Below, piece by piece: positions 11,148-21,915 of a stretch of 32,000 bases of DNA (position 1 is the first letter of the stretch; the number at the start of each line of letters is the position of its first letter). The position numbers were made by a program, and so were the translations under genes. Below the pieces are notes generated by a model that was not told the origin of the DNA, searched no databases, and saw only the letters and a program-made list of their open reading frames with translations. Source of the stretch: Candidatus Jordarchaeales archaeon (GTDB taxonomy: Archaea; Asgardarchaeota; Jordiarchaeia; Jordiarchaeales; Freyrarchaeaceae); the NCBI GenBank assembly GCA_038889235.1, contig JAWAHN010000001.1, positions 824,499 to 856,498 of the forward strand. Direction: 5' to 3'.

Positions 11148-12205
11148 GTGGTGGTTGTGTTGCCCAGGATGCTCCCGCCGGAGGGTGTAAAGAGGAAAAT
11201 TATAGTTAAAAGTGATGACGAAACTAGCGAAGAATATGGTAAGCGCCCTGAAGAGAGAAGCATTGAAGAGCACTTGAAGGGATGCTTCGTTAACATAGAT
11301 AAACCAGCAGGACCTACTAGTCACGAAGTCTCTTCTTGGGTTAGGAAAATTTTGGAGTGCTCGAAAACGGGGCACGCCGGAACACTAGAGCCCCTTCTCA
11401 ATGAGGGGGGCGGTGAAATCCTAAGGTTACCGGCGTTCTACCAGTGGCTATAGGTTCGGCTACCAAGCTTGTACAAGCTCTTCACCTTATAGGGAAAGAG
11501 TATGTATGCGTTATGAGGTTGCATGGCGATGTTGACCCGGAGAGAGTTCAAAGCGTCTGTAAGGAGTTTATTGGACCGATTTATCAAAGGCCTCCAATAC
11601 GTTCCTCTGTGAAGCGGAGGCTTAGGGTGAGACAAATATACTACCTTGATGTGCTCGAAATTGAGGGGAGAAACGTCTTACTAAAAGTGGGGTGCGAGTC
11701 TGGCACGTACATAAGGAAGCTTTGCCACGACATAGGAGAAGTCTTGGGTTGTGGAGCGCACATGCGTGAGCTTAGGAGAACGCGTAGTGGACCATTTACT
11801 GAAGACAATATTGTAACTTTGCACGACTTAAAAGATGCTTACGTTTTCTGGAAGGAAGAAAAGGACGAGACATATATTAGAAAGGTGTTATTACCCTTGG
11901 AGACTGGAGTGCAACACTTACCCAAGTTTTACGTGCGTGACTCAACTGTTGATGCCATATGCCATGGAGCAGATTTAGCCATTCCCGGAATTGTCAAAGT
12001 TGAAGATGGAGTTGAAAAAGGGGATGTTGTGGCGATTTTGACGCTCAAAGGCGAACTTGTCGCCCTAGGGACTGCAATGATGACGCTTGAGGAAGTTATG
12101 AGGGAGAAAAGAGGTATAGCTGTTAAGACAAAAAGAGTGGTGATGGAGAAGGGTACGTATCCGAAGCTTTGGAAGAGCAAGAAAGAGTCGAACAAAAGTG
12201 GGTGA
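11148..12205 (+). CDS. cbf5: Cbf5/TruB pseudouridine synthase, spliced: join(11148..11388,11418..12205), 342 aa (335 aa from ATG 11169)
   Basis: Two track ORFs join to give GHAGTL-D-PKVTGVLPVAIG after removal of a 29-nt BHB intron. DKPAGPTSHEV, YQRPP, SGTYIRKLCHD and a PUA domain are present. Confidence 0.96.
11389..11417 (+). other. BHB-type mRNA intron in cbf5 (29 nt)
   Basis: Central helix CACU/GGUG, bulges AG^A and AA^A, intron hairpin GCCCCU(U)CUC-AAU-GAGGGGGGC. Splicing recreates GAT (catalytic Asp). Confidence 0.93.
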
Positions 12206-12284: not shown

Positions 12285-12601
12285 TTGAAGTACCCCAAAG
12301 TTAGGCGGACGTATTGCCCACGGTGTAAGAAGCACACGGAACACATGGTTAGCGTTTACAAGAAAGGAAAAGACCGAGCTTTAGCCGCGGGAGCTAGACG
12401 CTACGCTAGGAAGAAGCGAGGTTACGGAAGCCAGCCTAATCCCTCCTACGCTGCGTAGAGGGGGGTAAACCCGTACAGAGAGAGTTTGCGAAAATAACTA
12501 AGAAGGTAAGCTTTAAACTGAAGTGTAAAGAGTGCGGGCACATTCTACACACGAAGGGCATTCGCCTGAAGAAGGTCGAGGTAGTTGAGAAAGGAGGGTG
12601 A
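12285..12601 (+). CDS. rpl44e: 50S ribosomal protein eL42 (L44e), spliced: join(12285..12439,12469..12601), 95 aa; absent from the ORF track
   Basis: Manual translation [20 protein letters not shown]...[10 protein letters not shown]|[24 protein letters not shown]...[10 protein letters not shown]. Canonical position before rps27e. Confidence 0.95.
12440..12468 (+). other. BHB-type mRNA intron in rpl44e (29 nt)
   Basis: Central helix GCCU/GGGU, bulges AA^U and AA^A, hairpin CCCU(C)CUACG-CUG-CGUAGAGGG. In-frame TAG at 12456. Splicing gives CCT AAA CCC (P-K-P). Confidence 0.92.
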
Positions 12602-19659: not shown

Positions 19660-20229
19660 TTAAATAATTTTCGTGGAGGATAACCATTCTGCGAGCTTTC
19701 TGAGAGCCTTCGCCCTATGTGATAGTGCGTTCTTTTCTTCTATGCTGAGCTCGGCAAAACTTCTTCCATCTCCCTCACTTGGTATGAATATCGGGTCAAA
19801 CCCAAAACCAAGGTTACCCTTAACTTCATGGGAGATGAATCCCGAGGTGCGTCCTTCAAATGTTAACACTTCCCCTCCATCCGTGAACGCTACGACAGAG
19901 ACAAATTCAGCCCGCCTGTTTCTGACGTCTTTCATGAGCTTCAAAATACCTTCGCAACCTATCTTGCTGAAAACGTATGAGGAGTAAGGTCCGGGGAATC
20001 CTTTGAGCGCCTCTATAAAGAGGCCAGCGTCCTCAACGAAAAACGGACACTCGGGTTTCATCTCTGACATAATCCACGTTAGACTCGCCCTAGCTATTTC
20101 CTCCAAACTTTCCGATTGTATTTCAAGGCGCTTTACATTCCACTGCTCAACAATTATTCCGTATTCAAGGAAAATTCTGCTTGCCTCCTGAAACTTGTTC
20201 TTGTTTCCTGTGACGAAAAGAATTCTCAT
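19660..20229 (-). CDS. rdgB: Non-canonical purine NTP pyrophosphatase (RdgB/HAM1)
   Basis: FVTGNKNK, EIQ, VEDAGL, GFPGPYS, GFGFDPIF and KNALSHRAKA motifs. Confidence 0.96.
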   Translation of the reverse strand: MRILFVTGNKNKFQEASRIFLEYGIIVEQWNVKRLEIQSESLEEIARASLTWIMSEMKPECPFFVEDAGLFIEALKGFPGPYSSYVFSKIGCEGILKLMKDVRNRRAEFVSVVAFTDGGEVLTFEGRTSGFISHEVKGNLGFGFDPIFIPSEGDGRSFAELSIEEKNALSHRAKALRKLAEWLSSTKII

Positions 20230-20861
20230 CTTTCCCAATAACGCCCCCTCCTTTCGATCTCAAACATCTTCTCTATGACTTCGTTTGCACCCTCAAAGGC
20301 CTCCCTGTATCCTTCGAGGACTGCATTGAAACCCTCCTCGAAGACATCATAGTGGCTGCTTTCCATTGCACGCTTCATCAAATGAAGATCCACGCCTAGA
20401 TCTTCGATGTTCTTTGAGAAATCACCCAGACCAAAGTCTATGAGAAAGACTTTTCCATCACTAACTATCATGTTCGACGTGGTGAGGTCCCCATGGACTA
20501 TTCCTCCCTTGTGAAGCCTTCCTATTAGAACACCCACTTTACGTAAAAGTTCGGTTAGCTCTTCACGCGAGAGTTTTCTCTCTCTTATAAGGTCGCTTAG
20601 CGTTACCCCCTCAATGCGATCCATTACTATAGAAGTTGACTCGGGATCCACAAGGTAAACTGTCGGGGTAGGAACCCCAACTTTCTTGGCACTATGGAGT
20701 AAGCGTGCTTCACGAAAAACCCTCTGCTTCCTTAAACCGACGTCTAAGTCCTTAACCCTATACGATTTGGGCCTACGCTCCTTGACAACAACCATGCGGT
20801 TTAAAATTGTTTTTAAGAAAAGGTAGGCTTCGGCACCTTTCCTAATAATCATGACATTCAC
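20226..20861 (-). CDS. bud32: KEOPS kinase Bud32 (stand-alone)
   Basis: GAEAYL, KERRPKSYR, HGDLTTSN and IDFGL motifs. Confidence 0.96.
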   Translation of the reverse strand: MNVMIIRKGAEAYLFLKTILNRMVVVKERRPKSYRVKDLDVGLRKQRVFREARLLHSAKKVGVPTPTVYLVDPESTSIVMDRIEGVTLSDLIRERKLSREELTELLRKVGVLIGRLHKGGIVHGDLTTSNMIVSDGKVFLIDFGLGDFSKNIEDLGVDLHLMKRAMESSHYDVFEEGFNAVLEGYREAFEGANEVIEKMFEIERRGRYWER

Positions 20862-21915
20862 CCTTCAATCCACGTTACCTGGACTTCATCTAGCCTCCAC
20901 CTGGGCTTAACGTAGCTCTCTTCGATGCTTAAAGTTCTTCCATAAAGGTACTCTAATATCCCCGTCCAGGCAATCATGGCTCCATTGTCCCCTGCAAGCT
21001 GGTGGGGGACCACGTGAAAGGTGGCATCATGCTCCTCGGCTACCGCCCTGATCATCTCCTGCAATCTATTATTCCTACCGACTCCACCAGTTAAGAGCAC
21101 ACTGCTTTTTCGCGTATGAGCCAAAGCTCTCTCAGTAACTTCAGCCAACATTGAGAAGCAAACTTCTTGTACACTGTAGCATAGGTCTTCGATCTTACAA
21201 CTACCAATTTTGCCCACCGCGGCGGTGTAGACCCCTGAAAATGAAAGATCCATGCCTTTGACGACGTATGGTAGTGGGATAAATGTTTGCCCCCTCCTCG
21301 CCAGCTCCTCTATCTTTGGCCCACCTGGATGCTTTAATCCCAAGGCCCTTGCAAACATGTCCAACATGTTTCCAATTGCTAGGTCTAAGGTCTCACCGAA
21401 GACACGGTATTTACCCTTCTCGTAAGCCGCAACTATAGTGTTACCTCCCGACACGTAAAGCGTTAATGGGTCATTGACGTTTTCGGTGAGACGGCCTATT
21501 TCAATGTGCGCCAGGCAGTGGTTAACCCCAACTAGGGGAACACCTAACAGTAGCGCCAGTGCTCTAGCTGCCGTCGCCACAGTTCTTAGGCAGGGGCCTT
21601 TGGAGGCTTCGCTAACCCCGGCCCCTGGGAGAACGCGACAAGCCCTATTTCTTTTATATTAATGCCCGCTGTCTCTATAGCGGAAGCTATCACTTGTTTA
21701 ACGACATTGGAATGGTGTTGCGCAGCCTCTCTGGGGTGGATTCCCCCTTCCAAGGGGACGTATTCGTCTTTAACGTTCGCTAATATCTCTCCTTCACTGC
21801 TTACTATGCCTACACCTAGCGTGTGAGCTGTTCCCTCGATGCCGACGCACAATAGGCGGCGGGAGCCTAGTAACTCCCTGACTTTTTTCAGAGTAACGTT
21901 GTTATTCGCTTTCAT
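20858..21915 (-). CDS. kae1: KEOPS t6A synthase Kae1/TsaD, spliced: complement(join(20858..21599,21614..21915)), 347 aa
   Basis: [27 protein letters not shown]|[33 protein letters not shown] and DNGAMIA motifs. The two track ORFs join after removal of a 14-nt BHB intron. Confidence 0.96.
21600..21613 (-). other. BHB-type mRNA intron in kae1 (14 nt, AGCGAAGCCUCCAA)
   Basis: CAGGGGCC-GGGG-UU^A-GC-GAA-GC-CUCC-AA^A-GGCCCCUG: 8-bp outer helix, 4-bp central helix and two 3-nt bulges. Splicing gives TTA GGC CCC (L-G-P). Confidence 0.93.

Follow-up and report, generated by a model that had tools for sequence, protein, structure and literature searches.

A probable miniature BHB-type intron in the kae1 pre-mRNA of a Jordarchaeales archaeon, with inserts at the same site in other Asgard families

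The kae1 gene of the Jordarchaeales archaeon analyzed here is interrupted by a 14-nt insert which, in all likelihood, represents a genuine miniature intron of the archaeal splicing-endonuclease (BHB) type in the kae1 pre-mRNA. The insert is very probably excised from the mRNA by the enzymes that splice tRNAs. It is comparison across relatives, rather than the single sequence, that supports the intron reading, and the same comparison lends support to the core of the original prediction: an EndA-type intron whose removal restores a conserved motif, in a genome with no intact copy of the gene.

An interrupted kae1 gene in a KEOPS gene pair

Within the 32-kb window (the whole stretch of 32,000 nucleotides that was analyzed), kae1 occupies 20858..21915 on the minus strand and is broken at GPGL/GPCL. 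Exon 1 (21614..21915, minus strand), whose ORF opens at the ATG at 21915, encodes amino acids 1-100 and the first two bases of Leu101, and it matches profile positions 1-78 of NCBIfam TIGR03722 (arch_KAE1) with 100 bits. Exon 2 (20858..21599, minus strand) runs from the third base of Leu101 to the stop codon and matches positions 80-323 of the same profile with 386 bits, which unaided exceeds the curated cut-off of 375 bits. Together, the two exons give a full-length TIGR03722 match over contiguous profile ranges. The gene belongs to an intact KEOPS gene pair with bud32 (20226..20861, minus strand; TIGR03724 arch_bud32, 233.6 bits), which lies directly downstream with a 4-nt overlap at the kae1 stop and is separate from kae1 in this genome. 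Family f28, some of whose genomes are single contigs of 4.3-6.0 Mb, has its kae1 match within open frames of 570-627 aa, and this suggests Kae1-Bud32 fusions.

Removal of 14 nt (21613..21600) yields a 1044-nt ORF of 347 aa that reads FSQGPGL up to the junction and aligns without gaps to 12 intronless homologues across the FS(Q/R/M)GPGLGPCLR segment. Judged by this intact ORF, its TIGR03722 coverage and the gapless alignment, excision at the bulges restores what is predicted to be a functional product, and the earlier claim that removal recreates the conserved Kae1/TsaD motif holds. With the insert retained, the frame from the ATG at 21915 reads FSQGPGL, continues as AKPPKAPA and ends at a stop codon at 21588-21586, where the original prediction had placed it (21586). 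That prediction had also named an intact kae1 elsewhere as evidence against an intron; our search of the genome (2.14 Mb, 8 contigs, 95% complete) found a single copy and no second kae1, the other PF00814 matches being weak and confined to one 784-aa frame.

A candidate 14-nt intron in a relaxed BHB fold

The whole BHB-type element spans 21591..21627 on the minus strand, and its architecture is the same in 17 sequences. Read directly, the 37-nt string from 21627 to 21591 is CAGGGGCC GGGG UUA GCGAAGC CUCC AAA GGCCCCUG, exactly as it had been quoted. The exons supply the outer helix, in which 21620-21627 pairs with 21591-21598; all eight pairs are Watson-Crick, and the helix is as perfect as had been claimed. 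The central helix joins GGGG (21616-21619) to CUCC (21602-21605) in 4 bp, one of them G.U. Between these helices and the inner segment lie the 3-nt bulges, UUA on the 5' side (21613-21615) and AAA on the 3' side (21599-21601), and the inner GCGAAGC (21606-21612) forms a 2-bp h' (GC/GC) closing a GAA loop. The predicted 14-nt intron, AGCGAAGCCUCCAA (21600..21613, minus strand), begins and ends after the second base of each bulge, its excision restores both the frame and GPGL/GPCL, and its make-up agrees with the one first given (A + GC-GAA-GC + CUCC + AA). The predicted spliced junction is ...CCGGGGUU^AGGCCCCUG..., and owing to a flanking A the alternative 14-nt window 21612..21599 would give an identical product.

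This copy had been described as a textbook BHB, a description that suits the longer homologues of families f2 and f32 and not the copy itself. The strict hBHBh' definition asks for more than two base pairs in both flanking helices (PMC3978253); here h has 8 bp and h' only 2 bp, so that the copy is of a relaxed form (hBH/BHL-like). In effect it may be modeled as a 10-nt loop that contains the 5' site and is closed by the central helix, followed outward by the 3' bulge and the outer helix. The 2-bp inner helix contributes -0.3 kcal/mol at 37 C and is destabilizing at 55 C and above, whereas the f2, f32 and f3 homologues have inner helices of 5-9 bp. The unconstrained MFE fold of this copy adopts a slipped register, in which GGGGUU pairs with AGCCUC around a 5-nt loop with a 4-nt CAAA bulge; it is better than the BHB by 2.7 kcal/mol at 37 C and stays ahead by about 1-2.5 kcal/mol at 55-85 C. 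Across the 13-14-nt family, the BHB lies +0.2 to +4.7 kcal/mol above the MFE. For most f2 and f32 sequences the unconstrained MFE fold is the BHB itself, which in the rest falls short of the MFE by no more than 0.6 kcal/mol; in f3 the gap is 1.4 kcal/mol, a consequence of a central helix that is mostly G.U. Relaxed substrates are processed by EndA enzymes with a Crenarchaea-specific loop (PMC3241643, PMC5829648). The further claim that this is about the smallest possible insert applies to a complete BHB only; it does not stand as a record, since the insert of a congener is 13 nt long and A. pernix is reported to have BHL tRNA introns of 5-7 nt (PMC3241643).

Inserts at the same codon position in related Asgard archaea

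Comparing kae1 orthologues with and without the insert, as the original prediction had proposed, showed that 16 relatives from four Asgard families, the own family included, carry an insert of 13-32 nt at this very codon position; the intronless homologues align without gaps. The junction DNA of these relatives places every insert after the second base of the Leu codon. Insert lengths are 14, 14, 14, 13 and 14 nt in the own family, 28-29 nt in family f2, 25 nt in the three genomes of family f32 and 26-32 nt in four genomes of family f3, one of which is a 1.4-Mb single contig. A search with exon 2 found the frame broken at exon 2 residue 1 in every matched member of the own genus, family and order, and likewise in f32 and f3. 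Among the matches listed, no interruption was found at the site in other Asgard families, where frames of approximately 320-630 aa are open; none was found in representatives of seven further families (frames of 335-364 aa), and none in 80 loci from Bathyarchaeia, Methanosarcinales, Promethearchaeota, Hadesarchaea and other groups that do not include close relatives (0/80).

All 17 sequences parse alike: beyond an outer helix of 8 bp, a central helix of 4 bp separates two bulges of 3 nt that lie on opposite strands. In each of them the outer helix consists of the Q-G-P and G-P-C codons, and the central helix pairs exon bases with the last paired bases of the intron. The 5' bulge is the Leu codon itself (YUA or UUG), and the 3' bulge is AAA, UGA, UAA or AGA, its final base being A in 17/17. 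When each bulge is cut after its second base, the protein junction comes out exactly in every one of the 17; in family f2 the predicted spliced junction is ...CCGGGGCU^AGGGCCUUG.... The inner sequences are wholly different between families while the geometry is retained.

Two other broken kae1 genes, both in Asgard MAGs, were considered as further introns and set aside. Those of G337 (a 255-aa open frame; L042, C10:76020-76320) and G018 (stops within the gene; L136, C121:600-1800) each look like a single-base frameshift, one at the GPG codons, in their GC run, and the other after DLSFSGLLTA, and both look like assembly errors or real lesions rather than introns.

Plain 1-nt frameshifts of this kind in MAG relatives lend some credit to the idea that the kae1 studied here is a split or decaying gene, either a pseudogene or the source of two polypeptides (109 aa and approximately 240 aa) made without RNA splicing, and a GTG at 21580 does open a 240-aa ORF over most of exon 2. 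That start would, however, drop the invariant GPCLRT segment, and both halves of the gene are well conserved: within the genus, exon 2 identity is 87-89%, and the halves cover TIGR03722 positions 1-78 and 80-323. Synthesis of t6A is near-universal, and this is the sole kae1 found in the genome. The break also falls on the identical codon in four families, amid RNA helices that covary, and a split gene is accordingly very unlikely.

The insert lengths speak to a second alternative. Eight lengths occur (13, 14, 25, 26, 28, 29, 30 and 32 nt), covering all three residues modulo 3, and the in-frame 30-nt insert carries a stop; given these length classes and that stop, only removal of the insert accounts for all of the sequences. 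Strong hairpins can stimulate translational recoding, and the insert is short and lies within such a hairpin, which might suggest that it is kept in the mRNA while ribosomes shift frame or hop to make full-length Kae1. The cbf5 introns were in fact formerly mistaken for frameshifting, as Yokobori et al. (PMC2738675) relate. Recoding would nevertheless need another shift or hop for each of the eight lengths. We read 21591-21627 for a slippery heptamer and for matched take-off and landing codons and saw neither, and what is conserved and covarying is the helix-bulge geometry at the two cut sites, not a recoding signal. Recoding is therefore an extremely improbable account of the insert, and an intron removed at the RNA level is the reading that we follow below.

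Covariation of the helices and chance expectation

The 17-sequence alignment (A1) has 204 pair cells, 98% of which are standard pairs, and both sides have changed in four pairs (27 cells). Pair 6-50, formed by the synonymous third positions of two Gly codons, occurs as G-C, U-A, C-G, A-U, U-G and G-U. The central helix is 98.5% paired, and its two outer pairs alternate between G-C or G.U and C-G. Sliding the 3' partner by 1-3 columns lowers pairing to 25-66%. The covariation score of 0.399 compares with 0.168 in shuffles and is reached by 0/500 of them, figures that overstate the support because the 17 sequences are related and not independent; kinship weighs less on the count of distinct pair types. 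Many of the pairs are G.U, which would be A-C mismatches on the antisense strand, so that the structure under selection appears to be that of the sense-strand RNA. The pattern points to selection acting at the RNA level on the sense strand.

The flanks form an 8-bp inverted repeat, as seen in some insertion footprints, and the insert might on that ground be put down to an artifact or element at the DNA level: a misassembly, or the trace of a tiny mobile element with inverted repeats, lacking any function in RNA. This account is scarcely credible. The insert recurs in independently assembled genomes, single-contig ones included (G006, G011), the inverted repeat is itself coding (Q-G-P and G-P-C codons), the inner sequences differ wholly between families around a constant geometry, and selection on the RNA is indicated by the G.U pairs together with the strand-specificity of the covariation.

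The fold alone is no proof of an intron. A strict descriptor (12 pairs in an 8-bp outer and a 4-bp central helix, two 3-nt bulges, an intron of 12-35 nt, G.U allowed) yields 1274 matches in the genome; the reversed genome gives 1282 and block shuffles approximately 830. Since it matches the reversed genome equally often, the descriptor is useless as an intron finder. The window holds 17 such matches, of which 16 look like noise and only the one in kae1 is meaningful. From the density of the descriptor we calculate a chance expectation of about 1e-5 at the exact position, strand and length, as an estimate. The improbable part is the coincidence: cut sites set by RNA geometry fall where the protein alignment demands them, in both position and length.

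Splicing endonuclease, ligase and tRNA genes

The genome encodes two EndA paralogues (196 aa and 195 aa) and one RtcB. The 196-aa EndA aligns without gaps to the catalytic alpha subunit of A. pernix (3p1z_B; E 4e-47), keeps the Tyr/His/Lys residues (vY...idHap...svrKk) and carries the YGQPLxxxKP loop, which reads YGQPLGIRKPK here and YGQPLDVEKPR in A. pernix alpha. Opposite this loop segment, the N-terminal (structural) unit of M. kandleri EndA (5x89) shows a gap of 10 residues in the alignment. In the 195-aa paralogue, Val takes the place of the catalytic His of M. jannaschii EndA (1a79), which fits a structural beta subunit. As judged by sequence alignment, then, the pair has the composition predicted for an (alpha-beta)2 EndA, a catalytic alpha with the loop and a non-catalytic beta. 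Asgard EndA has been described as an (alpha-beta)2 enzyme with an L1 loop and broad specificity (PMC5829648), a description that the predicted pair matches.

For the whole genome Aragorn detects no more than 14 tRNA genes, and introns with called lengths of 11-96 nt occur in 10 of them. Several of these introns sit at non-canonical positions around 30-33, and some are 11 and 14 nt long; Aragorn also gives one implausible call of a 1333-nt tRNA intron. Most tRNA genes are presumably too interrupted for detection. In Freyr-/Jordiarchaeaceae nearly all tRNA genes are interrupted, often non-canonically, and are missed by standard tools (bioRxiv 10.64898/2026.10.13.758758; PMC11291895), and the low Aragorn count fits this published picture. 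Within the 32-kb window, Aragorn found no tRNA genes and no Rfam family reached its gathering score.

Proposed mechanism and history of the intron

In the mechanism that we propose, the Q-G-P and G-P-C codons would pair in the transcript as an 8-bp exon-exon helix, and the next four exon bases, GGGG, would pair with the intron's CUCC as the 4-bp central helix. This would leave the Leu codon UUA and the intron-exon AAA as 3-nt bulges on opposite strands. The (alpha-beta)2 EndA would cleave after the second base of each bulge, and RtcB would ligate UU to A, restoring the UUA Leu codon and an in-frame mRNA for the 347-aa Kae1. The A that ends the 3' bulge in 17/17 sequences would thereby take over as third base of the Leu codon. 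Unspliced mRNA would give only a 109-aa dead end, and Kae1, hence tRNA t6A37, would thus depend on the tRNA-splicing machinery. Cleavage, ligation and the direction of the size change described next are what we infer from the sequences.

The 14-nt form probably arose by shrinkage from the 25-32-nt hairpin intron kept in three other Asgard families, since inserts of 25-32 nt with an inner hairpin of 5-9 bp occur in three of the four families and reduction is the simplest explanation of the 13-14-nt form. In a tree of Kae1 exon 2, deep nodes are unresolved and intron-bearing rows fall into three groups; family f9, which shares the phylum of the present genome, is placed with full support next to Promethearchaeota and Hodarchaeota loci that carry names, and this supports an Asgard identity for the phylum. 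The tree fits either a single origin of the intron with subsequent losses or several gains, neither of which it shows or excludes.

The symmetry of the exonic sequence had suggested a proto-splice site that predates the insert, and this idea survives in part. Six of the eight pairs of the outer helix are dictated by the Q-G-P...G-P-C codons. The two pairs at free third positions match in only 8/11 and 5/11 intronless genes, versus 15/17 and 16/17 intron-bearing ones. It is plausible that a proto-splice site existed before the intron; the site appears to supply most of the helix free, with the remainder tuned once the intron was present.

Neighboring observations and significance

The first archaeal mRNA introns to be described were those of cbf5. 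In the same window, on the plus strand, cbf5 is divided between two ORFs (11148..11453 and 11444..12205; region 11385-11475) by a GC-rich, hairpin-forming insert of 29 nt at approximately 11390-11418, inside GTL/DP. Without these 29 nt, GHAGTL joins DPKVTGVLPVAIGSATKLV, and the insert reads as a cbf5 intron in an Asgard genome. Elsewhere in the window, the rpl44e ORF (12285..12458) ends early beside a strong hairpin (12415-12485, plus strand), and 25395-25495 on the minus strand forms a pair of neighboring hairpins flanked by short helices.

A broader idea, which we regard as speculative and rather unlikely, is that the kae1 and cbf5 introns belong to a set of introns that certain Asgard lineages must splice by EndA and RtcB out of essential genes for translation and RNA modification. 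Such a set would couple production of the translation apparatus to tRNA-splicing capacity, and would have arisen because coding palindromes (GGNCC...GGNCC) act as proto-splice helices. If true, this would offer a concrete route by which protein-spliced introns enter coding genes among the archaea most closely related to eukaryotes.

Besides the Haloferax 5'-UTR case, the papers searched name that of crenarchaeal cbf5 as the only BHB intron reported, and it lies inside an archaeal CDS (PMC7714728, PMC2738675). We found no published report of this kae1 intron in the full-text literature that was searched, outside which most subscription journals fall. A conserved kae1 intron supported by covariation would extend the class of CDS introns to a second essential gene and to Asgard archaea, and would imply that the extreme tRNA-gene interruption of Freyr-/Jordiarchaeaceae spills into protein genes. 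Gene callers will give such a kae1 as two fragments or a pseudogene, distorting completeness estimates and pathway calls. The 13-14-nt copies, in which the inner helix is almost absent, are natural minimal substrates with which to probe what a broad-specificity EndA needs, and the exon-encoded outer helix provides a testable idea of where such introns may insert.

Comparison with known systems

In eukaryotes, HAC1/XBP1 mRNAs are cleaved by Ire1, with ligation by RtcB in metazoa, as a stress-regulated switch. The proposed kae1 intron resembles these in being a short mRNA intron cut by a protein endonuclease at stem-loops and joined by a ligase of the tRNA-splicing type, with a change of frame that decides the protein. 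It differs in the use of EndA/TSEN instead of Ire1 and in its RNA motif, and regulation is known for HAC1/XBP1 only. The ligases have been reviewed (PMC3400036).

Within the archaea, the HVO_1309 mRNA of Haloferax volcanii has a BHB intron in its 5' UTR (Schwarz 2020, PMC7714728). It shares with kae1 the role of an mRNA as substrate of the archaeal splicing endonuclease; that intron lies in an untranslated leader, whereas the kae1 intron interrupts a codon within the ORF. Very short or non-canonical BHB/BHL introns of archaeal tRNAs (PMC3978253; PMC3241643), those in the heavily interrupted genes of Freyr-/Jordiarchaeaceae among them (bioRxiv 10.64898/2026.10.13.758758; PMC11291895), are alike in their 3-nt bulges and 4-bp central helix, in the enzymes presumed to act on them and in size, the 11- and 14-nt Aragorn calls coming from the same genome. 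Unlike these, the kae1 intron has an mRNA host, in which the reading frame and not a tRNA fold checks excision and in which retention truncates the protein.

A further parallel is drawn with the BHB intron in the cbf5 pre-mRNA of Crenarchaeota (Aeropyrum, Sulfolobales, Desulfurococcales; Watanabe 2002, Yoshinari 2006, Yokobori 2009, PMC2738675), whose splicing has been demonstrated experimentally, while that of kae1 is predicted. Both are short introns of the EndA type inside the CDS of an essential RNA-modification enzyme. Both occur in hosts with a hetero-oligomeric, broad-specificity EndA, show a patchy distribution with gain or loss among lineages, and are easily taken for a frameshift. 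The kae1 intron differs in its host gene, which encodes a t6A synthase, and in its phylum, Asgard; its outer helix is built of exon codons on both sides, and the present copy has been cut down to 14 nt with a vestigial inner helix.
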